This document shows, piece after piece, positions 35,526-53,355 of a stretch of DNA of 64,000 nt. The notes beneath the pieces were generated by a model, which saw nothing but the letters and a program-made list of their open reading frames with translations, did not search any database and was not told the origin of the DNA. Origin of the DNA: Longimicrobiales bacterium (GTDB lineage Bacteria; Gemmatimonadota; Gemmatimonadetes; Longimicrobiales; Gaopeijiaceae); contig CBDAON010000004.1 in assembly GCA_965198065.1 (NCBI GenBank), forward strand, positions 416,001 through 480,000. The letters are read 5' to 3'. The position numbers were made by a program, and so were the translations under genes. The stretch's first letter is position 1; each line of letters starts with the position of its first letter.

Positions 35526-36351
35526 TTCTGTAACGAACAAGGCCACTCCGCCGCGGAAAACCAAGCCCAAGGGCCGCCATCCTGACAAGGCCCTGTCGGC
35601 CGCTTTCGTGCGCACCGCCCCGCCTGGAAGACACGCGGACGGCAACGGGTTGTACCTCTACGTGCAGCCGACGGGAACGCGGAGCTGGATTCAGCGGCTC
35701 GTGATCCGGGGCCGCAAGCGCGAGCTCGGGCTCGGCAGCGTCGCTCTGGTCTCGCTGGCCGAGGCCCGCGAGCAGGCGCTGGCCAACCGCAAGCTCGCCC
35801 GCACGGGCGGCGACCCGCTGGCTGAGAAGCGGCGCTCTGTTGGCATACCCACGTTCGCCGAAGCCGCTCGACGTGTGGTCGAGCAGAAGAGGGCCGGGTG
35901 GCGAAGTCGGGCGCAGGGCCGCGACTGGATCTTGACCTTCGAGCGGTACGCCTTCCCGCGCATCGGGAAGATGCCGGTCTCGGAGGTCACTAGCGCCGAC
36001 GTGCTGGAGATCCTCGCTCCCATCTGGCACACGAAGGCGGACACCGCCCGGCGGTTGCGGCAGCGCATCCGCGCGGTGTTGGAGTGGGCGGTGGCGATGG
36101 AGTTCCGGATCGACAACCCGTGCGACCGGATCGGCCCGGTCCTGGGTCCCCAGCGTGACGTCGTGCAGCACATGCGGGCGCTGCCGCATCGAGAGGTGGC
36201 CGCGGCCATCCAGACCGCGCGGGCATCAACGGTGCCGCTGGCCGTCCGGCTGGCGTTCGAGTTCCTGGTGCTGACGGCGGCACGATGGGGTGAGGTGCGG
36301 TGGGCCGAGTGGGCAGAAGCCGACAGGTTCACATCTGCTTGGGGTAATTGA
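35515..36351 (+). pseudogene. P4-type tyrosine integrase, truncated after the first catalytic Arg
   Basis: Arm-binding domain DGNGLYL.V..TG.RSW...LGLG...VSLAEARE, then FLVLTAARWGEVRWAEW; homology stops near 36328 with no HxxR or catalytic Tyr. Confidence 0.88.
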
Positions 36352-36404
36352 ACTTACGGACGTACCCAACCGGGTTCCCGCCGTTTGATTCCCGCTGATT
36401 GGTC

Positions 36405-37568
36405 TCAGGCGCGAACTCTGCGACGGCTCTCCAGAGCCTTCCTGAGCTGTGCCTCATCGGCCCGCTGGTAGCAGTGCAGCACCGTCTTGGCCTCCTTCCA
36501 ACCGCCGAGTTCGCAGAGCACCTTGAGCGGCTGGTCCATGAGGTCGGAGGCGAACTTCCGCCTTAGGGAGTGCCAGCCGCGGCCACGCTTGGATTCCAGC
36601 CCTGCGAGCGCTACGGCCTTCTCCCACCAGCGCTGCATCCACGAACAGCTCACGCACCTCGAGCGATCCCAAGGCGAGGGCAGCACGGGTGCGTCCCCGA
36701 TACCGGGATTCCTCTTTCGCGCCTCCTCCAGGGCAGCGAGCGCCTCGGCGGTCACCGGCGTCCGGTGCTCGTAGCCCGACTTGTCGTGCTCTGCGTGCCA
36801 CCGCACCACTCCGCATTCAAGGTCGACATCCGACCATCGAAGCTGACGGATGGCGCCGATGCGGTGTCCTGTCTCGTGTGCGAGGACCAGAGCAACGTGA
36901 AAGCGCCAGTCCATCTCCAGAGACACGTGGAGCAGGACCCGGTATTCTTCCTCGGTAAGCATCACCCGTGTCGGGTTCTTCTCCGTGGGCGTCTTCAGGC
37001 CCTTGAGCGGGTTCGAGCCGAGGAGCAGTTCGCCCCGCTCGTCCCTCGACTTCACGGCCCAGTTGAGGACCGCGAGCAGGAACTTCAAGTCCCGTTCGAT
37101 CATCCGGTCGGACACGGGTTTGCCGCTCGGGCCAACCCTGCCCGCGCGGCGCTCCCGGATGAACCGGTCCCAGTCGCGCTGGGAGAGCGTTGCGGGCTTC
37201 CGGTCCCTGCCGAAGCAACCGAGGAACATCCTCATCGCGGCCCTGTCGTGCAGCCGCGACTGCCCACGCTTGGTGGGCGTCACCTCTTCACCGTAGATGT
37301 CAAAAAGCGTCTCCAGGGTGAGCGGCTCGGACTCGGCTTCCGCCTTGCCCTCGATCTCCGGCCCGGCGAAGCCAGCGGCGAACTCGTCCGCCTGCCGCTT
37401 CGCCCGTCTCCAGTCGCGGTGCTTGAGCGACCTTGTGAGCCTGCGCCCGTTCTCGCGCCACTCGATCTGGAACAGGCCGGTCTTGGGATCGGGAAAGACC
37501 CGGACCCGGTTCCGGCCCCATTCGCCGGCGCCGTAGCTGCGCCGGATAGGTTTCGTGCGTGCCATCAT
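36405..37568 (-). CDS. Tyrosine recombinase/integrase of the ICE
   Basis: HETGHRIGAIRQLRWSDVD (R), HDK (K), WHSLRRKFAS (HxxR), LGGWK, HCYQ (Y). Confidence 0.92.
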   Translation of the reverse strand: MMARTKPIRRSYGAGEWGRNRVRVFPDPKTGLFQIEWRENGRRLTRSLKHRDWRRAKRQADEFAAGFAGPEIEGKAEAESEPLTLETLFDIYGEEVTPTKRGQSRLHDRAAMRMFLGCFGRDRKPATLSQRDWDRFIRERRAGRVGPSGKPVSDRMIERDLKFLLAVLNWAVKSRDERGELLLGSNPLKGLKTPTEKNPTRVMLTEEEYRVLLHVSLEMDWRFHVALVLAHETGHRIGAIRQLRWSDVDLECGVVRWHAEHDKSGYEHRTPVTAEALAALEEARKRNPGIGDAPVLPSPWDRSRCVSCSWMQRWWEKAVALAGLESKRGRGWHSLRRKFASDLMDQPLKVLCELGGWKEAKTVLHCYQRADEAQLRKALESRRRVRA

Positions 37569-37948
37569 TCGATTCCTTTTTCGATGATGGACTGCACGAT
37601 CTGCGCATTGGAAACTTGGCGCGGACGAAGCTCGTTGACCACTCGCGGCTCGGCTGGTGCCTTCCGTGGCAGGTGTCTGCGGGCGATCCTGGGCGCGCCG
37701 GGTCTTCCGGCGTTGGGGATCTTGCCGTCCCGCACAAGACGGCCGAGATGGTCAGCGGAGTAGCCGCTCTCCCTGGCTGCCTCCGTCAGCGAGAGGGTGG
37801 TCTCGTCCCTCTCCCGGAGCGTGGCCTCGAGCTCGGCCGCGCAGCTTTCGAGCGCGACGGCTGGCGTCTCGCCCCCGTACCGGCGGAGCGCCTTGGCCTG
37901 CGTCCGCCAGGTGGCTGGCAGGGTCTCGACGGATGCACGGCCGGTCAT
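37565..37948 (-). CDS. Excisionase-like HTH protein
   Basis: LSLTEAARESGYSADHLGRLVRDGKIP; stop overlaps the integrase start. Confidence 0.7.
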   Translation of the reverse strand: MTGRASVETLPATWRTQAKALRRYGGETPAVALESCAAELEATLRERDETTLSLTEAARESGYSADHLGRLVRDGKIPNAGRPGAPRIARRHLPRKAPAEPRVVNELRPRQVSNAQIVQSIIEKGIE

Positions 37949-37964
37949 GCGCGTCCGTCCGCGC

Positions 37965-38279
37965 TCAGTCCCAGTCACCTTCGGCGTCCCTGCGGAGCGC
38001 GTCGGTGAGGCCCGGGTCCCCGTCGCCGCGCCGTACAGACCGTTCGGCGAGATCGACGCGCCGCCCGAGGTCGGCGAGTCCGGCTGCACGAGCGACGGCG
38101 TAGATGGCGGCCGCAACGGCTGCGAGTGCGAGCCCGGCGTGCACTGCGATCAAGATGCCGTGGTTGGCGAGGATCACCGTCCAGAACGGCGCGAGGAATT
38201 CGAGGCGCGGACCGGCGAGCAGCACGGCAGACCCCGCGATCGCGGCGGTGAGTCCTGCACTGATTTTCCAAGGCTGCAT
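37965..38279 (-). CDS. Small membrane protein, unknown function
   Basis: 104 aa, 2-3 hydrophobic segments, in operon order with an upstream GGAG. Confidence 0.65.
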   Translation of the reverse strand: MQPWKISAGLTAAIAGSAVLLAGPRLEFLAPFWTVILANHGILIAVHAGLALAAVAAAIYAVARAAGLADLGRRVDLAERSVRRGDGDPGLTDALRRDAEGDWD

Positions 38280-38298
38280 GGCAGGCTACTCGTGGGAG

Positions 38299-39186
38299 TC
38301 AGAGTTCAAGCGCGGCCGGATCCCGGTCGGTCGGCCCTCGCAGGGAGGAGCGATCTCCGCCGTCGCCCACGCCGAGTGAGCGGAGCAGACGCGCGGCCGC
38401 CGGTCCGTTGGCGTGCATCCGGAACCCGGCGGCGGCCTTGGCGCGGACGGACCGTTCGCGGTAGTTGCCCGAGGCGACCTCGATGTTGACGCGTCCGGTG
38501 CGCCCCTCGGAGTCGGTGTACTCGATCTGCGCATCCGGGTAGAGCACGCGTCCCCGCGCATCGATCGGCAAGCCGAGCTCCTCGGCCACGCGGTGCCGCT
38601 CGGCGTCTGCGGCCCGCCGGCCGTCTTTCGCCCGCGCGGACTCACTGCGGCGCGCGACGGTGCTCCTGAGTTCGGTGTCGAGCCGGATGCGCCGCACGGT
38701 GGCACCCCAGTCGAGGAGGCGTTGCTGCTCCTTTCGGCAGGCGCGATAGACGGCGATGTCGTGCGCGGCCTCGGAGGGGCGGATGCGCGCGAACCGGATC
38801 TCCTGGCCGGGATCCATTCCCCGTTCGCCGGCCCGCAGCCGAGCCTCGGCCACGCCTTTCCGCGTGAGGGTCAGGACCTTGAACGGGTTGCCCTTGGGTC
38901 CGGTGGCCTGGGTCTCCTGGGCGAGCCCGTCGCGGACCCAAGCGTTCACGGCCCGCCGGGTGGTGTAGGGATGCCCGCCGAAGTGGGCCTCGGCGAGATC
39001 GCGGTACGATACGGCTCCGTAGACGCCGATGTCGGCAAGCGCACGGCCGCACCGTTCGGGGAAGGAGATGGACCCGCGGTCCCGGCTCGCGGCGTGTTCT
39101 CGGCGATGGCCGTTCCGCATGCGTTGGTTCGCGCGGCTGGGTGGCGCGGCGGGACGCGGGTCCGGTTCGATCGTGCGATCGAACAT
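38299..39186 (-). CDS. Winged-helix plus PD-(D/E)XK protein, Replic_Relax/MOBC-like relaxase candidate
   Basis: wHTH (LADIGVYGAVSYRDL...VLTLTRKG), AAHDIAVY, YPDAQIEY...VNIEVASGNY....RAK. Confidence 0.6.
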   Translation of the reverse strand: MFDRTIEPDPRPAAPPSRANQRMRNGHRREHAASRDRGSISFPERCGRALADIGVYGAVSYRDLAEAHFGGHPYTTRRAVNAWVRDGLAQETQATGPKGNPFKVLTLTRKGVAEARLRAGERGMDPGQEIRFARIRPSEAAHDIAVYRACRKEQQRLLDWGATVRRIRLDTELRSTVARRSESARAKDGRRAADAERHRVAEELGLPIDARGRVLYPDAQIEYTDSEGRTGRVNIEVASGNYRERSVRAKAAAGFRMHANGPAAARLLRSLGVGDGGDRSSLRGPTDRDPAALEL

Positions 39187-39208
39187 CTCCTGGGCTCCTC
39201 CCCGGTCG

Positions 39209-40237
39209 TCAGCGGCGAGGAGCGAAGCTCCGCTCCGGGATCGGGAGCGACGGCACGGGGTGGACGGCCCGGCCTGGCGCGGGTGCGCGGGTCGCGGCCA
39301 CGGGCGTGGGCTCCCGCTCGGCCTGGCGCTCACGGCTCCGCGTCAGCACGAAGTCGGAGATCTTCTGCGCGTCAGCCGCGGCGCGGCGGATCTCCCGGGG
39401 ATCCTCCTCGAGGGCGGCGACCCACCCCTCGACATAGGCGGCCCCGCGGCTCGGGTCGTGGCCGACGCCCACGCGCTCGCCCGTCATCATCGCGCTGATT
39501 TCCGCGCGGAGCTCCTCCTTCGCATAGGCCGGCGACCCGAACCCTTCGCCGATCCCTTGGGTGAGCGTTGGGCGGTTCATCCGTTCTGGATGGCCGGTGC
39601 TGTGCCCCAGCTCGTGCAGCGCCGTCTGGTAGTAGTGGTTCGCGGAGGGGAACTGTCCGCGCTCGGGGAGCACGATCTCGTCGCGGTTCAGGTTGTAGAA
39701 CGCCCGGTCCCCCGCCACGTGACGGACGGGGACCCCGCCGTCCTCGAGGACGCGTTCGGCCTGCTGGTGCACCTTCCAGAGCGGCTCGGCCGTGGGTGTG
39801 GGCCGGGCCGGGAGGCCGTCGGCCTGCTCGGCGTTGAAGACGGTGTACTGCCGGACGACGGGCGTGGGCATCCGCTCGTAGCGGTAGACGCGCTTGCCCT
39901 CGGCGTCCCTCCTGGGCCGTCCGCGCTCGTCGGTGACGGCGATCTTCCGGTGGTCCTGGAAGGAGAGGATGCGGGTGCCCTGCTCGCCCTTCCGGACCTG
40001 TCCGCCCCGGGCCTGGATCTGGCGGTAGGTTCCCCAGCGCACGTCGCCGTAGCCGCGCTCCTGCTGGACGGCGGCAAGGTGCAGGCTGTTCCCTCCGGCG
40101 TAGGAGCGTCCGGTATCGACGTTCGCGGGGAGCACGCGCTCGCCCGGCCCCCAGGGCTTCTGCCAGGGGGCCGTGCCCTGGCGGATCTGCTCGATGACCC
40201 GGTCGGCGAACTGGCGGTGATATTCGTCGTGTTTCAT
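39209..40237 (-). CDS. ardC: Antirestriction protein ArdC (ssDNA-binding domain plus zincin-like domain)
   Basis: GTAPWQKPW, TGRSYAGGN, WGTYRQIQARGGQVRKGE, YTVFNAEQ, ALHELGHSTGH..R..R, YAKEELRAE. Confidence 0.9.
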   Translation of the reverse strand: MKHDEYHRQFADRVIEQIRQGTAPWQKPWGPGERVLPANVDTGRSYAGGNSLHLAAVQQERGYGDVRWGTYRQIQARGGQVRKGEQGTRILSFQDHRKIAVTDERGRPRRDAEGKRVYRYERMPTPVVRQYTVFNAEQADGLPARPTPTAEPLWKVHQQAERVLEDGGVPVRHVAGDRAFYNLNRDEIVLPERGQFPSANHYYQTALHELGHSTGHPERMNRPTLTQGIGEGFGSPAYAKEELRAEISAMMTGERVGVGHDPSRGAAYVEGWVAALEEDPREIRRAAADAQKISDFVLTRSRERQAEREPTPVAATRAPAPGRAVHPVPSLPIPERSFAPRR

Positions 40238-40434
40238 AGCTCTTCCTCCTCGGGGCCGTGCGGATCCTCTCCGGCGTCGCGGATCTCGTCCTCGCTGCCC
40301 ACGTCCTCGGAGAAGAGGCCGTACTCTTCGGCCAGCGAGGCCGGCACCTCGAGGGCCTCGCCTCCGTCGCGCGCGAGTTCGCGGTCGAAGTCATCGAGCG
40401 TCTCGACGCGAACGATGTTCTCGTCGCCTTTCAT
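40234..40434 (-). CDS. Small, very acidic protein (66 aa)
   Basis: ATGA-type overlaps with both neighbours; D/E-rich. Confidence 0.65.
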   Translation of the reverse strand: MKGDENIVRVETLDDFDRELARDGGEALEVPASLAEEYGLFSEDVGSEDEIRDAGEDPHGPEEEEL

Positions 40435-41438
40435 GGGTTCACCTCCTCGGTGTGTGGGTGCTGTTCTTGCGGGGCTTCGTCGGCCCCGCTCCAGATCGGT
40501 TCGGCGATCCAGCGGCCCTTGGCCGCGTCGTAGCCGCGCACTTCGAGTGCCTCCTCGACGAACCGCCTGCCCCGTTGCCGGGCCGTGTGTAGCACAAGTG
40601 CGATCCCGTCGACGACGCCCCGGCAGGTGACCTCCCAGGGGAGCGCCCCTCCGGCTTGCATGGCACAGCTCGCGAGGCGCGAGAGCGCGGAGCGTGCGTT
40701 GTTGGCGTGGACGGTGGTGAGCGAGCCGCCGTGGCCGGTGTTGAGCGCCTGGAGCAGATCGGCGGCCTCGCCGCCTCGCACCTCGCCGACGACGATGTGA
40801 TCGGGCCGGTGGCGCAGCGCGTGCCGGACCAGGTCGCGGATCGATACGGGCGCGTCGGAGCCCGCCGCTCCGGCCTCGAAGCGCAGGCAGTTGGTCCGGT
40901 CGATCCTGAGCTCGAGCGTGTCCTCGATGGCGACGATCCGCTCCTCTTCTGGGAGCAGCTCGATCAGCGCGTTCAGCAGCGTGGTCTTGCCCGAGCCGGT
41001 GCCTCCGGAGACCAGGATGTTCCTGCGGGCCAAGAGGGCCGACCGGGCGGCCCCGAGGACCGTCTCCGGCAGCGAGCCCATGCGCACCAGGTCCTGAGCC
41101 GAGAACGCGCGGCCCCCGAACCGGCGTATCGTCATAGCCACGTGGGGGCTCGCGGGCGGCGTGCAGATGGCGACCCTCGAGCCGTCCTCGAGCCGCGCAT
41201 CGAGGACGGGCCGTGTGGCCGGATCGAGCCCGAGCGGCCGCGCGATGTGGATCGCCGCCCGATGGAGCGCGGCGGCGGTAAGCGCCGGCGCCTCGATGGG
41301 CTCGAGCTCGCCGCCGCGTTCGACCCAGACGTTGCCGGGGCCGTTGATCATCAGCTCGGAGACCTCCGGATCCTCGAGCACGGCCTCAAGTCCCGGCAGA
41401 AACGGCTTCAGATGCCCGATCCCGCTCGCGCGCTTCAC
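40431..41438 (-). CDS. virB11: VirB11/TrbB/CpaF-family traffic ATPase
   Basis: [58 protein letters not shown] start at 41438. Confidence 0.92.
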
Positions 41439-43471
41439 AGCCGGCCCTCCTCGCGAAGGCGCCAGTGGCCCGTGCCCCTCGGCAGGTAATGGGGCTTCAG
41501 ATAGACGCGCCGGGCCGGCAGGGACTTCGTGCCGTCGTAGGGCAGGCAGATCGCCTGATAGTTGGCGAGGAGGCTGAAGTCCCGGGGCGTGAAGACCGGC
41601 TCCCTCTGCTGACGGAACGACTTGCTCGCGCCGATCGTGCCGCGTCCGCCGCCTGCGCGCCCGGAGAGCAGCGAGAACTCGGGGCGTCCCGTGGTCTCGG
41701 TGAACGTGTAGGAGGGCTGCGTCTTCAGGACGCTCCCGCACATCTCGGACGCGATCCGCGCCGAGGACTCGTCGGAGAGCGAGAGGAAGATCCGGGTGCG
41801 GAGCGTCTGGACGAGCGTGCGCCAGGCCTCGCCCCCGGGCAGCACGGAGCGGAGCGAGGAGATCGACTGCGTGGCGACGATCGGGATGCAGCGGCACTGC
41901 CGGGTCAGCGCGAACGCCTTCTCGTCGCCCGACGGATCGTCCTGCCCGACGGTGGCGAACGCCTGGTACTCGTCGCAGATGAAGACGGCGGGCCGGAGGT
42001 AGCGGCCGGGCCGGCGGGCGGCCTCGGCGGGCCGCCGCAGGAGCGCCTGCATCCAGGCGTTCTTGAGGAGCACGCCGATGGCGCGGGCGAGCGCGGGGTT
42101 CGCGCCCGCGGGCATGTTCAGCGCGAGGACCCTTCCCTCGTCGATCAGCTCGGCTAGCGGCGGCAGCCTCCGCCGAAGGCCCGGCACGGGCCGGACGGAC
42201 TCGGCGTCCTCGTCCGGCGCGGCACCATACATATGTATGGATTCGTCCGGGTCCGGAGGCGGCGGGCAGAACACGCCGGCGACCTGCGGCTGGTCGAACA
42301 GCGACAGGAAGACACTGATCCCCTCGACGATCGAGGTGCGAAGCTTGGCATCGAGCGCCATCCAGTCATGCAGATACCACCGCTCGATGGCCTCGACCTG
42401 CGCGCCGAACTCGCTCCCCGCGCCGCCCCCGATCTCCTCCGTCTCGTACGCGACGCCGAGTTCGGCGAGTCGCGCTCTGAGTTCCGGGTCGAGCCGGCAG
42501 CTCACGTTCTCGGTGTCGGGCACCCGTTCCCAGGCCCAGTTCTTCAGTGTTTCCGGATGGCCGATCATATCGTCGTGGGAGATGACGGCGCGTACCGGAG
42601 AGAGCCGGGCCGCGAGCTCCCGGGCCTCGCGGATCTTCTCCGCGAAGAGCTCCGCGTCGACCGTGCAGCGGTAGATGTCCTGGAGCGTGACCCAGCCCCC
42701 CGGCAAGAGCCGGTACAGTTCGATGATCCAGCGCACGAGATTTGTATAGGCTTGCTGCCAGAACGGTTCTCGGCTCTTGCCGAAGAGCTGGTTGATGAGG
42801 GAGGCGACGCTGTAGGCGAGCGAGTAGGTGTCGAGCAGCGGATCGTCGAGCGGGTTCCACTGCAACGAGCCGTCGAGCCCGATCTCCAGGTAGTCGCCGC
42901 CGCGCCCGGCCTTCTCGAGGATCCCCCGCACTGCGTGGCAGAAGTCGCCCTTGACCTCGAGCACCAGGGCACTGGCCCGGCGCCCGGCCCGGTCGGCCTG
43001 CCAGGAGAGGAGCTGCTGGGCGAACGGATACATGCAGGCGGTGGTCTTGCCGGAGCCGACGGCGCCGACGATGAGGACGCCGGTGTAGAGCCCCGTCTCG
43101 GGGATGACGAGCCAGGAGGGCCGCTCGCTCTCGCGCGGGACGACGGGATGGTGGAGCTCGCCGATCACCAGCGATGGTGTCTCGTCCTCGGGCGAGGCTG
43201 GCCAGGGTGGCAACGTGCCCCGGCGCCCTCCTCCCGCTCGTGGCTGGAGCCATACTCGCCACACGGAGAGGCAGAGGCTCCCGGCGAGCACGACGGCGAT
43301 GGCGGGCGCCACGTAGTACCAGACGCGGATCGTGGAGTGGAGGCCCGGATCGTGGTAGGCGATCAGGTCTAGCACCGGGTCGCCGCCAGTGCCGGGGAAC
43401 GGTGCCCTGAGGGCGTGTCCGGCGGAGGCGCCCAGCGCAGTGCCGATGACGGCGAGCGTTGCTGGCCTCAT
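41435..43471 (-). CDS. Type IV coupling protein (VirD4/TraD-like)
   Basis: N-terminal TM; Walker A GAVGSGKT, LEVKGD, WNPL, Walker B FICDEYQ, IVATQSISSL. Confidence 0.85.
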   Translation of the reverse strand: MRPATLAVIGTALGASAGHALRAPFPGTGGDPVLDLIAYHDPGLHSTIRVWYYVAPAIAVVLAGSLCLSVWRVWLQPRAGGGRRGTLPPWPASPEDETPSLVIGELHHPVVPRESERPSWLVIPETGLYTGVLIVGAVGSGKTTACMYPFAQQLLSWQADRAGRRASALVLEVKGDFCHAVRGILEKAGRGGDYLEIGLDGSLQWNPLDDPLLDTYSLAYSVASLINQLFGKSREPFWQQAYTNLVRWIIELYRLLPGGWVTLQDIYRCTVDAELFAEKIREARELAARLSPVRAVISHDDMIGHPETLKNWAWERVPDTENVSCRLDPELRARLAELGVAYETEEIGGGAGSEFGAQVEAIERWYLHDWMALDAKLRTSIVEGISVFLSLFDQPQVAGVFCPPPPDPDESIHMYGAAPDEDAESVRPVPGLRRRLPPLAELIDEGRVLALNMPAGANPALARAIGVLLKNAWMQALLRRPAEAARRPGRYLRPAVFICDEYQAFATVGQDDPSGDEKAFALTRQCRCIPIVATQSISSLRSVLPGGEAWRTLVQTLRTRIFLSLSDESSARIASEMCGSVLKTQPSYTFTETTGRPEFSLLSGRAGGGRGTIGASKSFRQQREPVFTPRDFSLLANYQAICLPYDGTKSLPARRVYLKPHYLPRGTGHWRLREEGRL

Positions 43472-43481
43472 CGGTCTAACA

Positions 43482-43771
43482 CCCTTCCTGGAAGGATCGC
43501 TGGACGGGAGCGACCCCGCCGGGGAGGGTGGCATGGGCGTGCACATGCCACCTTCCCCGATGCCGTACTAGGCATCCCGAAGGGGGGGTCGCTCCCTCCA
43601 CGGCCGCACCCTCCGGAACGGCATCGCCGGTCCTGCGGCCGTGGTGCAACCGCAACGCCGCCAGCGATATGCGGAATCGGCGGCGCGCACATGGAAGCGG
43701 CGTTTTCGTGCACAAGCACCCCGATGTCGATGTGCACGCGCGGCACGCCACCGACGCCCGCCGTCCGGCGG
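43482..43771. other. Highly structured intergenic region; oriT, single-strand origin or ncRNA candidate
   Basis: Nested inverted repeats GGGAGCGACCCC/GGGGTCGCTCCC, CGGGGAGGGTGGCATG/CATGCCACCTTCCCCG, GATGCC/GGCATC, CCACGGCCGCA/TGCGGCCGTGG, CGTGCACA/TGTGCACG. Confidence 0.6.
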
Positions 43772-44707
43772 TCAAGATCCGCCCCCTGGAAGCCGGCTCG
43801 AACGCCATGTCGTGAACCCGTCGATCGCCGTTCCGGGCCGCGCGGACCGGAGCAGGTCCTTCAGCTCGACGATCCGCTTGAGGCAGGCCTGCAGGTCGCC
43901 ATACTCTTTGAGCACCCGGTCATCCTTCTTGCGGATGGCCTGCTCGATTCGGACGATCTCGCGGCGGGCCGCACTGTCGGGTTCCGGAGCGGCGGAGGGG
44001 CCGGATGCTGTAGATGTGTTGGTCCAGCCCTCGAGGATCGTCAGGGCCCGCTGCAGCTCCCTCACGGTGCGGACGACGGCCACGACCTCGATGGATCGGC
44101 CGCGCTCCCGCAGCGCTTCCCAGAGGCCGCGATGTGCCACGGCCCACGAGCGTAGCGCCGTCGTGGTATCGTGTCCGGGATCGACGTAGACGAACACGGC
44201 GCGCTCGGCTTCGAGCGCGACCGGCAGCTTGAGCGGGAAATAGCGCCGGGTGTTCCCGGCGGCTCCGCGGTAGAGCCGCGAGGGCAGGAGCCGGCGCTCG
44301 ATGCCGAGCGCCTCGAACGCGCCGACCTTCTCCATCTCGGTGGGCAGCCACGACAAGCCGGTGTGCTCGAGCACGTAGTCGAGCGAGAGCAGGCGGCGCA
44401 TGAGCACCTCCTCGGAGGCAGACCTGCGGTGGCGGATGTGCTCGGCGCCGAGCGCGCGGTAGGTCCGCCGGGCGAAGATCCGGCAGACCCTCAGGCCCCC
44501 AAGGATCTCCTCGTCCGCCAGCCGTTGGTCCGACATGGCGCGGACGAACCGGAGCGCCTTCCAGCGGTCGAGGCCGAGATGGGCCGAGAGCTGGGTGCGG
44601 GTGAACACGCCGCTGTGCAGGCAGACGAGCGCGATCCACTCGGCCTGGCGTCCCGTCCAGCCGAGCGGCTCGAGCGCCGCCTCGCGCCCCCGAAGATGGG
44701 CGATCAC
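43772..44707 (-). CDS. ICE hypothetical protein with N-terminal winged-helix-like region
   Basis: LGWTGRQAEWIALVCLHSGVFTRTQL...HIRHRR...RRLLSLDYVL...RYFPLKLPV; coupled to the virB8 stop. Confidence 0.7.
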   Translation of the reverse strand: MIAHLRGREAALEPLGWTGRQAEWIALVCLHSGVFTRTQLSAHLGLDRWKALRFVRAMSDQRLADEEILGGLRVCRIFARRTYRALGAEHIRHRRSASEEVLMRRLLSLDYVLEHTGLSWLPTEMEKVGAFEALGIERRLLPSRLYRGAAGNTRRYFPLKLPVALEAERAVFVYVDPGHDTTTALRSWAVAHRGLWEALRERGRSIEVVAVVRTVRELQRALTILEGWTNTSTASGPSAAPEPDSAARREIVRIEQAIRKKDDRVLKEYGDLQACLKRIVELKDLLRSARPGTAIDGFTTWRSSRLPGGGS

Positions 44708-45372
44708 CTCGAGTCGTCCGTGACCAGGGCCTGGTCGGCCTGGAGGTAGGTGATGAGGATGCCCATCGGGTTGTAGACGACGAGCTCGGAGGGGATGACG
44801 GTGAGGAAGGTGAACCGGAGCGTGAGCGACCAGCGCTCGCGGCGGATCTCCTGTTCGTCCCTGAGGTGCACGAGATCGAAGTCGGCGGTCGCGCCGTGGG
44901 GTGCCTCCGGTGCGGGGTGGATGCGGAGCACGACCTGCTCGACCTGGTGCTCGGTGTCGGAGGTGCCGGCCGCCATGGCGGCGACCTCGGCGCCGTCCCT
45001 CGTGAACGCGGCGTTCGCCAGCTCGGTCGACAGGAAGCGGAGGCTCCGGGTCCAGTGCTCCTCGACCGTGGCGTGGCGGCGCGAATAGAAGTCGGCGATG
45101 AACCGGTTAAGGAAGTATTTGGTCGTGGGATCGAGCGGATCCGCCTGCGCCGTGGCGGCCTCGTAGGCCACGGCCTCGGCACGGCCGACCTCGTCGACCC
45201 GCACGACGATCGGCCGGGGCGGCTCGACGGTCGCGACCCGGAGCAGGAGCACGCCGAGCGCGAGGCACGCGGCAGCGAGGACGATTGCAAGGGTCCTGAG
45301 CTTCCGGTTAGCCTCGACGGTCTCACCCCAGATCTCCGCGTACTCGCGGCCGGCATCGTGTTCTCGGTTCAT
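44704..45372 (-). CDS. virB8: VirB8/TrbF-family T4SS protein
   Basis: YAEIWG...single TM...PIVVRVDEVG...YFLNRFI...YNPMGILIT. Confidence 0.85.
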   Translation of the reverse strand: MNREHDAGREYAEIWGETVEANRKLRTLAIVLAAACLALGVLLLRVATVEPPRPIVVRVDEVGRAEAVAYEAATAQADPLDPTTKYFLNRFIADFYSRRHATVEEHWTRSLRFLSTELANAAFTRDGAEVAAMAAGTSDTEHQVEQVVLRIHPAPEAPHGATADFDLVHLRDEQEIRRERWSLTLRFTFLTVIPSELVVYNPMGILITYLQADQALVTDDSR

Positions 45373-45383
45373 GGATGTCTCCT

Positions 45384-46394
45384 TCAGCCTCCGGGGACTG
45401 GGGGGCGGGCCGGGTTCGCGGCAGCCGTGAGGCGCCCGCCGCCGCGGACCACGAGCGCCATCATGCCCGACCCGACGGATCCGGAGCCGGAGACGAGCAT
45501 CGCGGCGAGCTCGCCCACCTTCATGCCGGCCATCAGGCCGGAGACGACGAGCGGGAGGAGGACGACGACCCAGATCCCGAGCTCGGCGGGGTCGGAGGAG
45601 CCGGTGCCCATCAGGGCGCCGGTATAGGTCGTGACGTAGCCCATGCCCACGCCCATGAACACACGGAGGATGGCTCCGGCCACGACGCCGTAGAGCGTGT
45701 AGACCATGAGCGTGCGGAACCATCCCCAAAACAGGAACGCGAGCGGCTCGAATAGCAGCCAGGGGATGAAGACCGGGCCCAAGAGGATCACGATAGCGAG
45801 CGCCACCTGGGCCCAGATCACCTGCGCGTAGGTCAGGCAGAAGAGTGCGACCAGGCCGAGCACGAGCGGCACGCCCATCATCAGCGCGACGAGGGACGAG
45901 AAGAACACGCTCACGCCCTCGGTCACGACGGTCATCAGGCTCCCGCCCGACCATGCGGCGCCGAGCCGTGCGGCGAACGCCTGGACGAGCGCGGTCATCT
46001 CCGTATAGCCGACGGACACGACGTCGGAGATGAACAGGTTCTGGAGCCAGATCCCTCCGGCCGCGACCATGGCCGGAAAGGTGAAGCCCACGCCCGGGAT
46101 CGGGATGCTGTAGTAATGGAGCAGCGTCCGGGGGATCGCGATCCCGAGCACGACCCGCACGAGGGACCAGGGCTCGAAGGTTCCGCTGTACGCGATCTTG
46201 AGGCCGGTCCAGGCGACGACGATCGCCGCGAGACCGCCCCACAGCTGGTGGCCGAGCGTCAGCACGTCGGGCGCCGCGCCGCCGACCACCGTATCGAGCA
46301 CGACGTCCAGGAACCCCTTGAAGTCCTGGAGCTGATCCGCCGGGATCTGGGCCGGGACGTTCGGATCGATGGACTGGGGGGGAGGAAGCTGCAT
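45384..46394 (-). CDS. virB6: VirB6/TrbL-family T4SS protein
   Basis: Polytopic; LLGPVFIPWLLF..LAFLFWGWF; Gly/Ser-rich tail. Confidence 0.82.
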   Translation of the reverse strand: MQLPPPQSIDPNVPAQIPADQLQDFKGFLDVVLDTVVGGAAPDVLTLGHQLWGGLAAIVVAWTGLKIAYSGTFEPWSLVRVVLGIAIPRTLLHYYSIPIPGVGFTFPAMVAAGGIWLQNLFISDVVSVGYTEMTALVQAFAARLGAAWSGGSLMTVVTEGVSVFFSSLVALMMGVPLVLGLVALFCLTYAQVIWAQVALAIVILLGPVFIPWLLFEPLAFLFWGWFRTLMVYTLYGVVAGAILRVFMGVGMGYVTTYTGALMGTGSSDPAELGIWVVVLLPLVVSGLMAGMKVGELAAMLVSGSGSVGSGMMALVVRGGGRLTAAANPARPPVPGG

Positions 46395-46413: not shown

Positions 46414-47343
46414 CTAAACTTGGCCGCCCATGTAGAACGACGGGACCTTGAAGAGGAGCCCTTCCCGGAGCCGGTCGCGGTTCTGGAACGCGGCCGCCCG
46501 CATCGCATCCGCCATCGCGTTCGTACGGAGGCGCGCGTCCCTCCACTCGGCGAGCCGCTCGAGCCGGTCGATCTCGGCCTGCTGCATCCGGTTCGCCTGC
46601 TCGACGGCCTGATAGGCGAGCACCTGCGCCACGGCGGCGTTGATCCGGCCCTGCGTCAGCGCGGCCGCGACCTGCGCCTGCTGGAGTGCCGTATTCGACA
46701 GGTTCCCATTCGCGGTGAGCTCGTCGAACGAGCTCTGCGCGCTCTCGACGGTCGAGGCGAGCGAGGCCGCGGCGTCCATCATCGCGTAGTCGAGCACGCG
46801 CTGGCGGTCGGCGGCCTCCTTGGCCTGGCGGTAGTCCTCAACCGCGCGGGAGGATGCCTCGGCCGGGCGGTTACGGTAGAGCCCCAAGATGTCCGCCTCG
46901 CTCACCTGGTCGGCCACACCCTGGGCGCTACGCCAGCCGTCGGTGAACGAATCTCCGCTCCCCATGTCACGCACCGCGTCGACCAGCTCGCCGGCCGCTC
47001 CGGTGAACTCGGAGCCCCAGTCGAGGCCGTCGCCGACGAGGCCGATGGATCCGGCCGCCAGCTCCGCGAACGGTTCGATCAGCCCGTCCACCTCGCCCCG
47101 GGCAACCTCCTTCATGTAGTCGAGCTGCTCCTCGAGCTCGGTGAGCTGGCGGGTCATCGTCCGCATCTGGCGGATCTGGTTCGCGATCTGGGTTGCTTGG
47201 TTCACGATCATCTGGGCTCGCTGAATCGCGCCGCCGATGTCGAAGAAGGCGTTGGCCGGCCCTGCGCTCGCGAGCATCAGGATGGAGACCAAGAGGACGG
47301 TGGTAAGGCTGCGGTGACGCATGATGAGCTCCTTTGGTGTCAT
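46414..47343 (-). CDS. VirB5/TrbJ-like exported helical protein
   Basis: Signal peptide (AGPANA), Gln-rich helices QIANQIRQM, position just before virB6. Confidence 0.65.
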   Translation of the reverse strand: MTPKELIMRHRSLTTVLLVSILMLASAGPANAFFDIGGAIQRAQMIVNQATQIANQIRQMRTMTRQLTELEEQLDYMKEVARGEVDGLIEPFAELAAGSIGLVGDGLDWGSEFTGAAGELVDAVRDMGSGDSFTDGWRSAQGVADQVSEADILGLYRNRPAEASSRAVEDYRQAKEAADRQRVLDYAMMDAAASLASTVESAQSSFDELTANGNLSNTALQQAQVAAALTQGRINAAVAQVLAYQAVEQANRMQQAEIDRLERLAEWRDARLRTNAMADAMRAAAFQNRDRLREGLLFKVPSFYMGGQV

Positions 47344-48617
47344 TGCCGTGTCCCGGACCTGGGGACCAGGACATCGGACGTGAACCAGATGCGCAGGCGA
47401 TGGCCGGCGCGGATCGTGATCGTGGGTAGCCGGTTCAGGAACCGGTCGAGAACCGAGGTCGCGCTCTGGCCGAGGCCCTGGCCGATGCCAGCCCTCAGGC
47501 CGAACGGCGAACCACCGGCCAAGGCGAGTCCGCTCACGACACCGACGGCTCCGGCGGCCGCGAACGTGCTGAAGTAGTGGCGGTCGACTTGGTCCCGAAG
47601 CGCGCCCTCGCCCGCCTGGTTGAGGCCCGTGAACTCGAGGTCGATCCAGCTGCCGTCGGGCAGCAGCAACCGGTGAAACGCGACCGCGAGCCGGCTCTGG
47701 TCCGGGTCCTGAACGGCCTGGGCCGTGCCGACGACGCGTGCGCCGCGCGGGATCAGGACCCGCTGGCGGTCGGCCGAATAGAACGGGACCGAGACAGTCG
47801 CGAGCACCGGTCCGGGGAAATCGCCCGTGAGCTGAGTGAGGAGCACCCCTTCGAGGAACGAGCCCTCGTAGATCCGCTCCCAGCCCGGCAGGTCGGCAGG
47901 CCGGACGCTACGCCATGGCTCAGCCGTGCCGGGCGCTCGGAGGGAGGCCTGCGGCCCGGACGCGGGCGCCGCCGTAGCGGCGATGCCAGGGGACCCGAGG
48001 AGAAGCTGCTCCGCCGCCAGCTCGCCCTCGAGCGCCCCGAGCGACTGCTCGAAGGAGGCGAGAGCCGCTTGGACCGTGTTCTCGAGGACCGCCACACCCG
48101 CGTCGGCCGCATCGCCGGTGCCGGCTTCGGACGACTCCGCGGTCGCGTTCGGATCCCTGTACGACTGAGCCACGGGAAGGGCACGGAGCGAGCGGGTTCT
48201 TCGCTCCAACTCCTCCAGCCGAAGCGCCTCCCTAAGCTCCGACTCGGCCGCGCTCACGCCTGGGATCAAGGCTGCGGTGTTCGGCGTCTCCGACTCGGTC
48301 TGGAGCCGAGCCATCTCCTCGGCGGCCGCGGCCTGCCGGCGCTCGAGCTCGGCCCGCGCCCGGGCGGCGGCCTCCAGGGTCTGCCGCTCGGCCTCCTGGC
48401 GAATGCGGTCTTGGAGCGACCTCCCCATCCCGTCGTCGACGGCCCGGGCCTCGGGCAAGGCCCCGAGAGCGGTCGCATCTTCCTCGGGACCCGTCACCGC
48501 CCAGGAGAACAGGAGTCCGCCGACGAGCACCGCGATCAGCACCACGCCGGCCTTGGTGACGATCCCCCCCGGCAGCGCGCCTTCGGGCGGCCGGACCCAC
48601 TGCTTCCAGCGGCTCAT
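47340..48617 (-). CDS. virB10: VirB10/TrbI-family T4SS protein
   Basis: EGSFLEGVL.TQL.GD.PG, VLIP.GA..VG, RL..PDG, G.GAL.DQVD.H, PTITIRAG. Confidence 0.9.
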   Translation of the reverse strand: MSRWKQWVRPPEGALPGGIVTKAGVVLIAVLVGGLLFSWAVTGPEEDATALGALPEARAVDDGMGRSLQDRIRQEAERQTLEAAARARAELERRQAAAAEEMARLQTESETPNTAALIPGVSAAESELREALRLEELERRTRSLRALPVAQSYRDPNATAESSEAGTGDAADAGVAVLENTVQAALASFEQSLGALEGELAAEQLLLGSPGIAATAAPASGPQASLRAPGTAEPWRSVRPADLPGWERIYEGSFLEGVLLTQLTGDFPGPVLATVSVPFYSADRQRVLIPRGARVVGTAQAVQDPDQSRLAVAFHRLLLPDGSWIDLEFTGLNQAGEGALRDQVDRHYFSTFAAAGAVGVVSGLALAGGSPFGLRAGIGQGLGQSATSVLDRFLNRLPTITIRAGHRLRIWFTSDVLVPRSGTRQ

Positions 48618-49456
48618 CGGAGTCCTTCCCGTGGCGTGAACCGCCAAGCGGCCCGCTTGTCGCCGATCTGGAGCCACCCGTCGCCCAACACGTGTCGGGT
48701 GATGTAGAGGCCGTCCTCCGTCAGGTCGTAGGCCACGAGCGCCGGCTCGCCGTCCCGGAGCTCATAGAGGGCCGGCGACTCCTGGGCATGCGAGCGGAGG
48801 TAGGTGAACTGCCCGTCGTGCCACATCGCTTCGACCAGGAACGGCCGGTCGGCCGCGTCCCCGTCCAGGCGGTACTCGAACGCGAGACGCTCTGGATAGC
48901 CGGCTCGGAACGCTTCGATCTCCGATGCCGCGCGCGACTCGGCTTCTTCCTGGGTCCTCCTGGCCGCCTCCGCCGCCTCGGCGGCCATCTGCTGGTAGGC
49001 CGCGACCTCGCTCCGCGCGACGAACGCGGGACGGCCGCTGCCGCCGCTGGACACCCCCGTCTTCTCCGTGCCGGACTCGACACGGACGACCAGATGGGGT
49101 GGCCCGTCGCTCTGCTCAGCCACCAGGAACGAGTAAATCCGGCCGGACTCGCAGACGAGCGCGATGTTCGTCGCCGCATCTTGAGAGAGAGGCTTCAGGA
49201 ACGCGACGTTCGCCGCGCCGGTCAGGTGCCAGTACTCCGAGTCGCCGACCACGAAGTCGAGGATGTTCTCCCCGGCGGGGAGCACGATGACCGTCGTGTG
49301 ACGGACTTGGGTCCGCAGCCGGTGGATCCGATCCTCGCCCTCCTCCGGGACCGGCACTCGGAGGAAGGCGTCGTCGTCCTGCTGCGCGACGGCCCCGGCG
49401 GGGAGGGCAGCCAAGAGAAGCGCGGTTAGAACGAGGGGTGTAGTCGGGGATCGCAT
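48614..49456 (-). CDS. virB9: VirB9/TrbG-family T4SS protein
   Basis: Signal peptide; TTVIVLP.GE.I....GDS..W, FLKP...TN, MWHDGQFTY, PALY. Confidence 0.85.
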   Translation of the reverse strand: MRSPTTPLVLTALLLAALPAGAVAQQDDDAFLRVPVPEEGEDRIHRLRTQVRHTTVIVLPAGENILDFVVGDSEYWHLTGAANVAFLKPLSQDAATNIALVCESGRIYSFLVAEQSDGPPHLVVRVESGTEKTGVSSGGSGRPAFVARSEVAAYQQMAAEAAEAARRTQEEAESRAASEIEAFRAGYPERLAFEYRLDGDAADRPFLVEAMWHDGQFTYLRSHAQESPALYELRDGEPALVAYDLTEDGLYITRHVLGDGWLQIGDKRAAWRFTPREGLR

Positions 49457-49462: not shown

Positions 49463-51907
49463 TCAGCTCCTTGCGTTGGGGGTGGGGGTGGGATCGTCTC
49501 GGCTCGCGAGAACCTCGAGGGCCCGGCTCAGTCCATAACGGGAGACCGCCCGGGCCCTCTCCTCGGCGTCCAATGCGGACGAGGTGTAGAGCCAGTAGCT
49601 CTCCGGATCGACCTCGAGCCGGAGCACCGCCGCCCCGTCCGGACGGCGCAGATAGAGCTCGCGTTTGGGGATCAGGCCCCGGACCTGGGCCAGCTCCGAC
49701 TCGTTCAGCCGGAACAGCGCGCCGACCTCGTCGGGGAGCTCGGGGTTCGCGAGGAAGAGCTTGGTCGGGATCGACTCGAGGAGCGCCGCCGCGCCGGGCG
49801 TTGCCGTCACGTCCACGGCGGACTGGGTGGCGAGGATCAGCGCGGCGTTCTTCTTCCGCCACGTCTTCGCCGCCTCGGCCAGATAGCTAAGCACCGCCGG
49901 GTCCTGCAGGTAGCGCCAGGCTTCGTCCACGACCATCAGCTTCAGCCGCGCCGCCTCGGACGGGTCCTCCACCTCCAAGCGCATCCGCTCGAGCAGGTAG
50001 GAGAGCGCCGCGTCGCAGAGATCCGGATGCTCGACCGCCCCGGCGAGATCGATCACCTGCCAGTCGGCGAACTCGAGATCCGGTGCCCCGCCAGCAGGGT
50101 TATCGAAGTACGCGCCCCAGGCGCCGCCTTCGATCCAACGGCTCCAGGCCGGCCACATCGCCGAGGGGAGGGAGCCAGCCAATACGCTCAGCGTCCGCCG
50201 CTCCGGCTCGAACGCATACAGATCCTCGATCCGCGCCCGGATCTCGCTCGTGTCCGCCCCGCTCGCCTCCCAACCGCCGAGCTTCAAAAGCCGGAGCACC
50301 CAACCGGTCAGGAACTGGAAGGTCCTCGTAGTCGCCGGCAGCGCGAACGGCTGCAGCCGGAGCGTCGGCTCCGCCTCGCCTGGCGAGAGCTCCAGGTAGC
50401 GGCCCCCGAGGAACCGGGTCAGCCAACGGTAGGAGCCGCCCAAGTCCAGAATCAGGACCCGAGGGTCGTACCTGAGCGCCTCGACCAGCAGGAAGTTGAG
50501 CGTGAAGCTCTTGCCCGAGCCGGTCGCGCCGAGCATCAGCGTGTGCCCCACGTCGCCAGCGAACAGATCGTAGTGGTACGCCGTACGCCACGGGGTCTCG
50601 AGTACCGCGAGCGCTTCGCGACCGAGGTGACGGCTCTGCGGCGTCCCCCGGGGAGGCCCGAACAGCGGCGCGAGGCACGCGGCCACTCCGGCCGACACGA
50701 ACACCTTCCGTACCTGCCGCCCACGCGGTTGGGCCGGGAGCCGCGAGAACCAGACCGGGAGCTGGCCGTAGCCCTCCCGGATCACTTTCGCGTCGTGCGC
50801 GGCGAAGAGACGGCGGAGGTCGCCGTCCAGCCGCTCGATGCTTCCGAGCTCGCCGTGGAGCGCCACGGTCAGCGTGGCCTCGCCGTAGCTCACCCCGTCT
50901 GCTTCCAGCTCGACCAGCGCCTCGCCCAGCCGGTCGGACTCCGTCGCCGCGGCCGAGTCGACCATCGCGGCCGCCGTGCCCTCCGTCTCCTGCACGTGCG
51001 CCATCATCGAGTAGCGCTTGGCGAAGTAGTGCCGCTGCGCGCCCCGGATGCGGCGCCGGGCCGCTTCCACCGCCCAGGGACGCCACTCGAGCGAGACCGT
51101 CATCGCCGCGTCCAGGCAGTAGAGGTCCCGGAGCAGGTTCGCGTAGGCTTGGCCGGGCGGGGACAGAAGTGAGTAGAGGATCACGGGCTCGCCGTCGAGC
51201 CGCAGGTGGGAGCGCTCCGCCTCGAGCTCAGAGAGCGCGAGCCGCCAGTTCATCCCGCTCCCCGTCGCGCCGTCCCACACCGTGCCCGGCCGGTTGATCA
51301 GCTCGGAGAGGAGACGGGAAGCCTCGCTGGCCGGGAGCATCTCGATCGGTGTGTGCTCCCCGACGAGCGCCCGGCCCGCGTCGACCGTCGCGCGAAAGCG
51401 GGCGGCGGCGGCCTCGATCTCGGAACCGAGGTAGGTCGGCGCGCTCGCCCGGCGGCGCTTCCACCACTGCCTGAGCCGGGAAGCGCTTCCTGTTCTGGGC
51501 CCGTCTGCCACCGCCCGGAGACGGGGATCGTGCGACCAGACCAGGTAGGCCTCGAGCTGCTGCACACGGCCGGCCAGAAACGCACTCCGCTTCCGCTGGG
51601 AGACCGCTACGATGCCGGAGCCCTCGTGGGCCGCGGCCTCGGGTGAGACCGGCCGACGGAGCATATAGAAGTAGAGGCGCGTGTCAGCGTCCAAACCCGA
51701 GAGCAACCGCTGCCAGCGGCCCAGCACCCGGTCGATCTGTTCGGGTGAACGCCCATCGACCACCGCGGGCGCTAGCCGGCCGGCCGCGATCAACTCGCCC
51801 GAGCGGGTCAGGCAGGTACAGCCGTCCTCGAGCCAGCCCCAGTAGGGCAGCTCCTCCGCGAGCGAGCCGGCCGCCTCGTAGTCCCTGAGCTCCGCGGAGA
51901 TCCTCAC
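49463..51907 (-). CDS. virB4: VirB4/TrbE ATPase
   Basis: VGHTLMLGATGSGKS, ILDLGGSY, VVDEAW.YL, KTWRKKN...ATQS; GTG start at 51907. Confidence 0.93.
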   Translation of the reverse strand: MRISAELRDYEAAGSLAEELPYWGWLEDGCTCLTRSGELIAAGRLAPAVVDGRSPEQIDRVLGRWQRLLSGLDADTRLYFYMLRRPVSPEAAAHEGSGIVAVSQRKRSAFLAGRVQQLEAYLVWSHDPRLRAVADGPRTGSASRLRQWWKRRRASAPTYLGSEIEAAAARFRATVDAGRALVGEHTPIEMLPASEASRLLSELINRPGTVWDGATGSGMNWRLALSELEAERSHLRLDGEPVILYSLLSPPGQAYANLLRDLYCLDAAMTVSLEWRPWAVEAARRRIRGAQRHYFAKRYSMMAHVQETEGTAAAMVDSAAATESDRLGEALVELEADGVSYGEATLTVALHGELGSIERLDGDLRRLFAAHDAKVIREGYGQLPVWFSRLPAQPRGRQVRKVFVSAGVAACLAPLFGPPRGTPQSRHLGREALAVLETPWRTAYHYDLFAGDVGHTLMLGATGSGKSFTLNFLLVEALRYDPRVLILDLGGSYRWLTRFLGGRYLELSPGEAEPTLRLQPFALPATTRTFQFLTGWVLRLLKLGGWEASGADTSEIRARIEDLYAFEPERRTLSVLAGSLPSAMWPAWSRWIEGGAWGAYFDNPAGGAPDLEFADWQVIDLAGAVEHPDLCDAALSYLLERMRLEVEDPSEAARLKLMVVDEAWRYLQDPAVLSYLAEAAKTWRKKNAALILATQSAVDVTATPGAAALLESIPTKLFLANPELPDEVGALFRLNESELAQVRGLIPKRELYLRRPDGAAVLRLEVDPESYWLYTSSALDAEERARAVSRYGLSRALEVLASRDDPTPTPNARS

Positions 51908-52206
51908 CGCCCGCTCCGGATCACGAGATGCCAGGGCTCTTCGGCCCACTTGCCCGGGTCGAAACGCGACGAGTAGCGCGTCCCGGCCCGGAGCACACCC
52001 AGCATGTCCGGGTCTTTGCGGCCCGCGAGCCACCCGGCCCCAAAGCCGACCGCGAACACCACGCCGCCCGTCACGAGCGAAGCCGTCGCGTTCCACATCG
52101 CGAGCCCGAGCGTCGCGCTCAGCAGGAACCCCCTGCGCTCCACGCCCAGGATCGTGAGCGGACGGTTCAACGCCGGATAGCCGGCCCAGCGCCTCAGGCC
52201 CCGCAT
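51904..52206 (-). CDS. virB3: VirB3/TrbD-family protein
   Basis: ALNRPLTILGVER, two TM segments, RKDP; lies between the pilin and virB4. Confidence 0.85.
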   Translation of the reverse strand: MRGLRRWAGYPALNRPLTILGVERRGFLLSATLGLAMWNATASLVTGGVVFAVGFGAGWLAGRKDPDMLGVLRAGTRYSSRFDPGKWAEEPWHLVIRSGR

Positions 52207-52499
52207 CAGAACAGCCAGGCCAGGAAGTTGGCCGCGCCCATCGCCATCCCGAGACCGAAGATGATCCCGGCCAGCGTCCGCTTGCTCCCGCCCTCGCCGA
52301 ACGCGAACATCAGTCCGCCCACCACGATCGCGATCAGCGACAGCCCTCGTGCGATCGGGCCCGTGAACTGCGCCTGCAGCTCGTTCACCGCCTCCACCCA
52401 CGGGCTCGTCCCCTGCGCCCACAGCACCCCGGGGAACAGCAACCACAGCGTGAGCGTGGTCCAAGCCGCCGCTCGCGTTGTTCTCAAGAACGTCTGCAT
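52206..52499 (-). CDS. virB2: VirB2/TrbC conjugal pilin
   Basis: Leader ending WAQG.SPW, then FTGPIA.GLSLIAIVVGGLMFAFGEG. Confidence 0.9.
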   Translation of the reverse strand: MQTFLRTTRAAAWTTLTLWLLFPGVLWAQGTSPWVEAVNELQAQFTGPIARGLSLIAIVVGGLMFAFGEGGSKRTLAGIIFGLGMAMGAANFLAWLF

Positions 52500-52532
52500 C
52501 GTCTTCTCCCTCTTTTCCGTTGAATGCGCCGG

Positions 52533-53028: not shown

Positions 53029-53076
53029 ACCAGTGCACCAAATACGGTGTTGGCAAATGACGCAAGACAGTAGGCA

Positions 53077-53352: not shown

Positions 53353-53355
53353 TAT

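Follow-up and report, generated by a model that had tools for sequence, protein, structure and literature searches.

Here we report on a 64,000-nucleotide stretch of a Longimicrobiales genome (GenBank assembly GCA_965198065.1, contig CBDAON010000004.1, positions 416,001 to 480,000; hereafter the window) carrying an integrative and conjugative element (ICE) that likely processes its DNA with a MOBC-like relaxosome of two proteins. The element is MPF-T-like (mating-pair formation type T), with one minus-strand run of transfer genes together with VirD4, ArdC, Xis and Int. This proposed module consists of two proteins, here termed A and B, and of the gap between the genes for B and the coupling protein VirD4:

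38299..39186, minus strand: protein A, with a winged helix (residues about 40-123) and a putative nuclease domain related to Replic_Relax/MOBC; predicted nickase
43482..43771, minus strand: predicted origin of transfer (oriT), with an inverted repeat and four 6-bp iterons
43772..44707, minus strand: protein B, in which a winged helix precedes a restriction-endonuclease-like domain that has no conserved triad; predicted specificity subunit for the oriT

Judging from sequence, it is fairly probable that B binds the iterons and sets oriT specificity, that A nicks a constant palindrome via a PD...E metal site and that VirD4 passes the strand on. A preliminary description of this DNA had singled out both open reading frames (ORFs), and they and their motifs are as it gave them: A has 295 aa, with AAHD at 140-143, YPDAQIEY at 216-223, NIEV at 234-237, Y242 and K250, whilst B has 311 aa, with HIRHRR at 90-95. 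Both are real genes, given the number of their homologues (at E<=0.001, 1170 for A and 3476 for B out of some 8000 scored candidates), their conserved gene order and AlphaFold models with a pLDDT of 88 each.

Neither protein has a Pfam match at E<=0.1 or an NCBIfam match at E<=0.01, and A itself matches neither PF13814 (Replic_Relax) nor NF041423 (MobC). Structure searches confirmed the winged helices that had been proposed for both N-termini, which are of MarR/PadR type (for A, Z 10.4, rmsd 2.8 and 78 residues to MarR-type proteins; for B, Z 8.6). An alignment of 80 A sequences, reaching down to about 24% identity, shows strong conservation of H142 (80), D143 (75), E172 (75), P217 (80), D218 (79), E222 (75), E236 (77), Y242 (77) and K250 (75). 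Six of the 80 members match PF13814 at E<=0.1, one of which passes the curated cut-off and covers 1-171 of its 191 positions, and the ESM Atlas gives a Replic_Relax cluster for A at 0.90. Moreover, we built our own Replic_Relax alignment from 14 sequences, the stronger 14 of the 28 PF13814 matches in Acidobacteriota. A aligned to it with an hhalign probability of 93.7, its H, PD, E and K falling on the corresponding positions and A238 on that of the second carboxylate. The C-terminal domain of A alone scored 21-22.6 against Replic_Relax, whereas none of 30 column shuffles exceeded 12.2, and the C-terminus raised the global score (46.6, against at most 35.0 after shuffling). This in-register alignment, with a non-acidic residue at 238, supports at the level of sequence the earlier proposal that A is a divergent relative of Replic_Relax/MOBC without the canonical ExE.

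Several observations weigh against this relationship. The local profile score of A comes almost wholly from the winged helix, such that shuffling the C-terminus leaves it unchanged at 55.8, and the profile match of the C-terminus alone is weak (probability 5, E 0.008). The second carboxylate is missing, position 238 being A/V/T/G in the 80-sequence alignment; D218 and E236 are conserved, but the DEE metal-binding triad is not complete. A also lacks the K-x4-Y of CloDF13 MobC, NF041423 matches only 1/80 A members, weakly, and the profiles of A and B barely align to each other (probability 3.8). Searches of the PDB with the full-length A model returned winged-helix matches only. In favour of the relationship, the best full-length structure matches, from a viral library, were 274-283-aa Bacillus phage proteins (best TM-score 0.48/0.51), and related Bacillus phages encode a MobC-like relaxase of such a size (PMC3357382), which may be the protein matched.

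The C-terminal domain of B resembles the restriction enzyme SdaI with a middling Z of 7.6 (rmsd 3.6, 117 residues). SdaI was the sole match among the top 50 structures to span this domain, and Foldseek with the B model returned nothing at E<=0.001. Against the Replic_Relax profile B reached a probability of 53-63, shuffling of either half lowering the score in 15/15 trials, and 0/40 B members match PF13814 or NF041423. Since this domain is endonuclease-like, both A and B likely carry a restriction-endonuclease-like fold, and here we depart from the preliminary description, which had named a PD-(D/E)XK fold for only one of the two. B nonetheless resembles a degenerate representative of this fold and conserves no catalytic triad: the position of the catalytic E is Y/F/H in 40/40 members, and the PD aspartate is present in 11/40. 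Only A keeps a catalytic-looking site. Among proteins of 887-2530 aa there was no fusion of A with B; this is weak evidence, and lengths of about 520-890 aa lay outside the search.

The residues that B does conserve invite a different division of labour, in which B is the cutter or in which the two proteins share a composite site, A giving the PD/E and B the missing carboxylate or a nucleophile (Y83, R94, D110; D176). Y83, R94 and D110 are each invariant (40/40), and D176 (D in 29/40) aligns with the carboxylate missing from A. B also has the endonuclease-like fold, always adjoins the palindrome and virD4, which is the usual relaxase slot, and occurs at some loci without a nearby A. We nevertheless judge this arrangement unlikely, as the PD aspartate is kept in so few B members, there is no E at the core strand, D176 is gone in most of the soil clade that retains the PD, and A keeps five conserved acidic residues. 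We prefer A as the cutter, and Y242 may possibly serve as its nucleophile.

The gap upstream of virD4 folds far better than shuffled sequences (z -5.6). Across 35 close loci its invariant parts are two 10-bp arms, at window positions 43507-43516 and 43586-43595, and the iterons start at 43539, 43685, 43708 and 43732. The core palindrome was found downstream of B in 61/69 distinct loci, including soil-type loci and those free of a type IV secretion system (T4SS), compared with 1/69 inside B and 0.15 in base shuffles. Those arm positions that were not forced by the search stay paired through differing base pairs (52/52, 52/52 and 47/52), and conservation of the gap tracks the repeats, not codons. 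A structured RNA is disfavoured, because the palindrome arms have no G-T bias; positions 36000-56000 gave no match to Rfam. Nor is a small ORF within the gap established: one frame is mostly open in 33/35 sequences, a state that G+C-rich DNA readily gives.

In the 29 elements compared, four slots in the gap are filled by a short repeat, and its sequence varies with the first residues of the B recognition helix. The main pairings are HPEQ with TTCAC (14 elements), HH(E/D)R with TGCGCA (5), HRRS with CCGGAC (3) and DR(W/F)(K/Q) with GTGC(A/G)C (3); there are two smaller classes besides, and a few single-slot departures. By comparison, the recognition helix of A (GGHPYTTRRAV) is nearly invariant and the palindrome core is constant too. 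Over the same elements, identity of the gap correlates with that of the B helix (rho 0.85) and of the B core (0.58), and weakly with A (0.39), the A helix (0.34) and the abutting N-terminus of VirD4 (0.16). That the correlation falls so steeply at virD4 speaks for function beyond linkage. Moreover, the helix classes require 11 changes on the A and VirD4 trees and 6 on the B tree (quick tree). From these sequence comparisons B and the gap appear to be exchanged together, as a cassette, whilst the rest of the backbone is shared, so that specificity could change without changing the cutter. Two points count against so direct a reading: B adjoins the gap and linkage alone therefore explains part of the co-variation; and the variable tail of B (residues 241-305) correlates with the gap as well as the helix does (0.84). 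Against the proposed mechanism as a whole, A lies about 4 kb from the oriT and 4.6 kb from B in the lineage of the window. Of the two roles first suggested for B, that of an oriT-binding partner is supported by the co-variation of its recognition helix with the iterons, whilst that of a second nickase has become less likely.

Eight more copies of the palindrome lie in this genome (G000) outside the three main B-virD4 junctions, at C1:9970, C3:53324 and C4:1265, 485037, 1347372, 1408026, 1723953 and 2545073. Two identical ones sit within insertions in virB4, and these extra copies may be oriT-only hitchhikers or remnants.

In the mechanism that we propose, B would bind the four iterons, short and specific to each element, and A would recognise the invariant palindrome, the two meeting at the predicted oriT. 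A would then nick via its metal-dependent PD...E site, possibly with Y242 as the nucleophile, B being catalytically degenerate. The nicked strand would be handed to VirD4 and travel as single-stranded DNA through the T4SS. Transfer of single strands fits with the ArdC of the window, and with the single-stranded DNA-binding protein (SSB), the RepB' primase and the small ribbon-helix-helix (RHH)-like gene of its relatives.

The two genes co-occur, a point that the preliminary description had suggested testing. We sampled 401 genomes from the phylum of one Acidobacteriota bin and scored five candidates in each: 37 carry A, 48 carry B and 35 share both, where about 4.4 would be expected. Hence 35/37 A-positive genomes also carry B. 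Conversely, 13/48 B genomes have no A match, 6 of them with substantial B matches, which counts against the proposed mechanism; at all five of the A-less B loci examined there was no virB4 within 20 kb. We kept 57 of 71 A matches for a count of neighbours, dropping fragments: 30 have B on the same strand within 1.5 kb, 21 have B within 20 kb and 6 are without B. At least 6.5 kb of sequence is available upstream of A in 56/79 loci, and amongst these ardC adjoins A in 55, virB11 is present in 46, the 3' end of virD4 in 43 and B at its expected place in 28, the missing neighbours being mostly due to insertions.

Twenty 20-kb regions revealed three gene orders, the first being that of the window. 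The second runs ardC-A-orf104-virB2...virB8-B-virD4-virB11, and the third virB8-orf104-A-B-gap-small RHH-like gene-virD4-virB11. In this third order the RHH-like gene was assigned by eye, and a RepB' primase and SSB are often present as well. The soil-type elements L142-L144, L156 and L157 have an RSF1010-like RepB' primase after virB11, and several an RHH-like gene before virD4; the lineage of the window has neither the primase nor the small RHH-like gene. One of them carries a NADAR-DarT toxin-antitoxin pair as cargo beside the transfer region (L143:3233-4640). At three loci (L147, L150 and L151, in genomes G348, G364 and G388) A, B and the palindrome are accompanied by serine recombinases or a tyrosine integrase, whilst searches of these genomes with the VirD4 and VirB4 of the window found no homologue. 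These loci are candidate integrative and mobilisable elements (IMEs), with the gene content expected of a mobilisable element, and their freedom from a T4SS indicates that A and B are separable from the mating apparatus. No relative was found among 72,556 plasmids.

The element itself contains no recognisable relaxase, as the preliminary description had stated: no relaxase-family Pfam match was found in the 30 window ORFs scanned, nor an H-hydrophobic-H motif in the 18 element genes scanned. Likewise, none of 116 unexplained neighbour ORFs scanned in the twenty 20-kb regions matched a relaxase family. We then tested 41 of the 48 B genomes for four HUH families, dropping seven with only short fragments, and found matches to PF03432 in 8, PF08751 in 5, PF03389 in 5 and PF01076 in 0. 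Thirty of the 41 match none of them, including G404 with its five A and five B copies. PF03432 occurs in 5/5 Gemmatimonadota-type genomes tested, this genome included. TrwC, MobA_MobL and Mob_Pre are absent from the same five, and MOBH (TraI_2) and MOBT (Rep_trans) were each found in 0/5, this genome being 87.6% complete.

The four PF03432 matches in this genome all lie outside the element of the window; canonical MOBP relaxases occur within another ICE copy and at a site 14 kb beyond the window. Two of the four were annotated, and each belongs to a mobC-mobA-mobB module with its own tyrosine integrase, restriction/helicase cargo and an adjoining broken virD4. One insertion (G000:C4:2844905-2859261) is flanked by a 16-bp repeat at both junctions; the second element spans about 493500-506600, beyond the window. 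Moreover, virD4 is broken in 12/43 related loci, with breaks recurring at about aa 178, 234-246 and 500. Owing to their own integrase, their mob layout and the broken virD4, these MOBP genes are, where examined, best read from sequence as hitchhiking passengers and not as the relaxase of the ICE. A canonical relaxase beyond the window, which had been named as a finding that would overturn the initial idea, is therefore present in appearance only, as the two annotated ones belong to an element inserted in virD4. Hitchhikers in coupling-protein genes are known in streptococci, where IMEs integrate in traG/virD4 of Tn5252-family ICEs (PMC5704250); those described here share that site, but differ in having tyrosine integrases and MOBP mobC-mobA-mobB modules and in residing in Gemmatimonadota.

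Such passengers could still supply a relaxase in trans, leaving A and B as replication initiator and regulator of the excised element, or as repressors of virD4, and the palindrome as an origin or operator. The phage Replic_Relax members annotated as nicking replication initiators, the position of the gap directly upstream of virD4 and the occurrence of MOBP relaxases in all five Gemmatimonadota-type genomes, some within these ICEs, would suit that explanation. We hold it to be improbable, because 30 of the 41 B genomes, G404 amongst them, match none of the four HUH families, the two annotated MOBP modules travel with their own integrase and break virD4, and A, B and the palindrome remain within the transfer operon in three gene orders.

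T4SSs without a MOB are common and often repurposed (PMC3548315), and this one might accordingly export proteins or double-stranded DNA, with A and B as secreted or accessory nucleases unrelated to an oriT. The same paper also attributes the MOB-less systems of some clades to relaxases not yet known. Given the integrase, Xis, ArdC, SSB and RepB' primase genes that accompany the system, and the many diverged copies per genome, we consider such an export role very improbable. Pfam matches across the element cover an integrase, ArdC, a VirB11-type ATPase, a coupling protein, VirB8, TrbL/VirB6, TrbI/VirB10, CagX/VirB9, a VirB4-type ATPase and a VirB2 pilin. Integrase, MPF and coupling protein thus lie within a single chromosomal unit, as in an ICE.

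The origin of CloDF13 has a 14-bp inverted repeat around its presumed nick site. A 10-nt likeness between that nick region and the arms of some soil-type elements was set aside as likely chance. The proposed relaxosome is like MOBC (TraX of pAD1 and MobC of CloDF13; PF13814, NF041423) in its N-terminal winged helix and probable PD-(D/E)XK-type domain, in being encoded with a VirD4 coupling protein, and in an origin, here predicted, that combines an inverted repeat with distinct short repeats. The direct repeats bound by TraX number five and lie 70-120 bp from nic (PMC12857230), and MOBC has a DEE metal-binding motif (PMC6736028). The proposed relaxosome differs in consisting of two proteins of paralogous fold instead of one, in the loss of the triad from B and in that neither window protein scores on the family hidden Markov models (HMMs). 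In addition, the motif of A reads E-x-(A/V/T), followed by Y at +6 and K at +14, whereas CloDF13 MobC has E-V-E (E-x-E) with K at +6 and Y at +11, its sequence being read from a frameshifted record and TraX residues being taken from reviews. As its predicted workings are MOBC-like but the family HMM scores and the DEE triad are lacking, we class the system as a MOBC variant and not as a member.

Other parallels are more partial. In R64 NikA/NikB and pCF10 PcfF/PcfG the nickase is recruited by an auxiliary protein bound to repeats in the oriT (PMC12857230); there, small RHH proteins act as auxiliaries and HUH enzymes as nickases, whereas the predicted auxiliary here is a full-length protein of winged-helix and endonuclease fold. 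The phage MobC-like relaxases (0305phi8-36 orf200, SPO1 gp27.3) are of similar size to A and likely share its two-domain fold, but identity is about 10% and they are single genes beside an ATPase. No description of a two-protein A+B module was found in the literature searched, most subscription papers and all supplements being outside its scope.

We would only tentatively suggest that ICEs and IMEs of Acidobacteriota and Gemmatimonadota have a relaxase subfamily of their own, namely a heteromeric nickase in which a dead, swappable B reads a 4-6-bp iteron code and a shared A cuts an invariant palindrome via the relocated Y242. If so, the relocated tyrosine could form the covalent DNA-protein link so far missing in MOBC enzymes; for restriction-fold relaxases no covalent intermediate has been seen (PMC12857230, PMC6736028). 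The system makes testable how such relaxases deliver DNA without one: its tyrosine is conserved, its palindrome is defined, and from its natural helix-iteron pairs one can predict which elements are able to mobilise which. The tested Pfam and NCBIfam relaxase profiles miss both window proteins, as had been foreseen, and this ICE family and its T4SS-free hitchhikers would consequently score as MOB-less or non-mobile; the accompanying claim of a separate type is weakened by the link to the described MOBC/Replic_Relax superfamily. The family is widespread: it occurs in about 1 in 10 sampled Acidobacteriota genomes, and a single Gemmatimonadota genome may hold as many as about ten copies of A.

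The remaining features of the element are as follows:

36348..36400, minus strand: right end of the element, a conserved sequence after int (attR/arm-site-like); the same motif follows int in 6 copies in this genome
36405..37568, minus strand: tyrosine integrase (PF00589, E 1e-16)
37565..37951, minus strand: excisionase-like helix-turn-helix protein, from position and a weak HTH_17 match (E 0.003, below cut-off)
37965..38279, minus strand: orf104, small hydrophobic protein, beside A in all three gene orders; no Pfam match
39209..40237, minus strand: ArdC single-stranded DNA-binding anti-restriction protein (PF08401 and PF18818)
40234..40434, minus strand: orf66, small acidic conserved ORF with synteny kept; no Pfam match
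40431..41438, minus strand: VirB11 ATPase (PF00437, E 2e-45)
41435..43474, minus strand: VirD4-type coupling protein, intact in the window (PF10412 and PF12696)
42751..42766, no strand: empty target site in virD4, occupied by a MOBP hitchhiker in another copy (the 16-bp repeat found at both insertion junctions)
44704..45372, minus strand: VirB8 (PF04335)
45384..46394, minus strand: VirB6/TrbL (PF04610)
46414..47343, minus strand: VirB5/TrbJ-like protein, from position, signal-like N-terminus and conserved synteny; no Pfam match
47340..48617, minus strand: VirB10/TrbI (PF03743)
48614..49456, minus strand: VirB9 (PF03524)
49463..52096, minus strand: VirB4 ATPase, start uncertain (PF19044); a VirB3-like ORF overlaps its 5' end
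52206..52499, minus strand: VirB2/TrbC pilin (PF04956)
52484..54072, no strand: control region with a frameshifted AlpA-like gene (PF05930) and small ORFs on the minus strand
53356-54072, plus strand: divergent repressor-like gene in the control region, named from sequence alone

Similarity to other copies of the element ends near 52900; no left att repeat was found, only the right end being located. In two copies in this genome the motif after int abuts the 3' end of a tRNA-Ile or tRNA-Ala gene, and there is no tRNA gene in the 64-kb window. No excision or circle junction was found among the joints listed for the reads of four runs, which gave no usable expression signal. This genome holds three near-complete copies of the element and several fragments, and the closest named relatives are from Longimicrobiales/Gemmatimonadota, together with some Acidobacteriota and a few other bins.

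The small protein orf104 carries a conserved, charged C-terminal motif and could anchor A or act in entry exclusion. The genome is rich in insertion sequences (IS), and IS-like multi-copy segments and integrase fragments flank the element at about 29000-31160, 34900-36300 and 58900-61700 of the window. Lastly, a dense array of 18 tRNA genes lies elsewhere in the genome (G000:C4:1710874-1713237).

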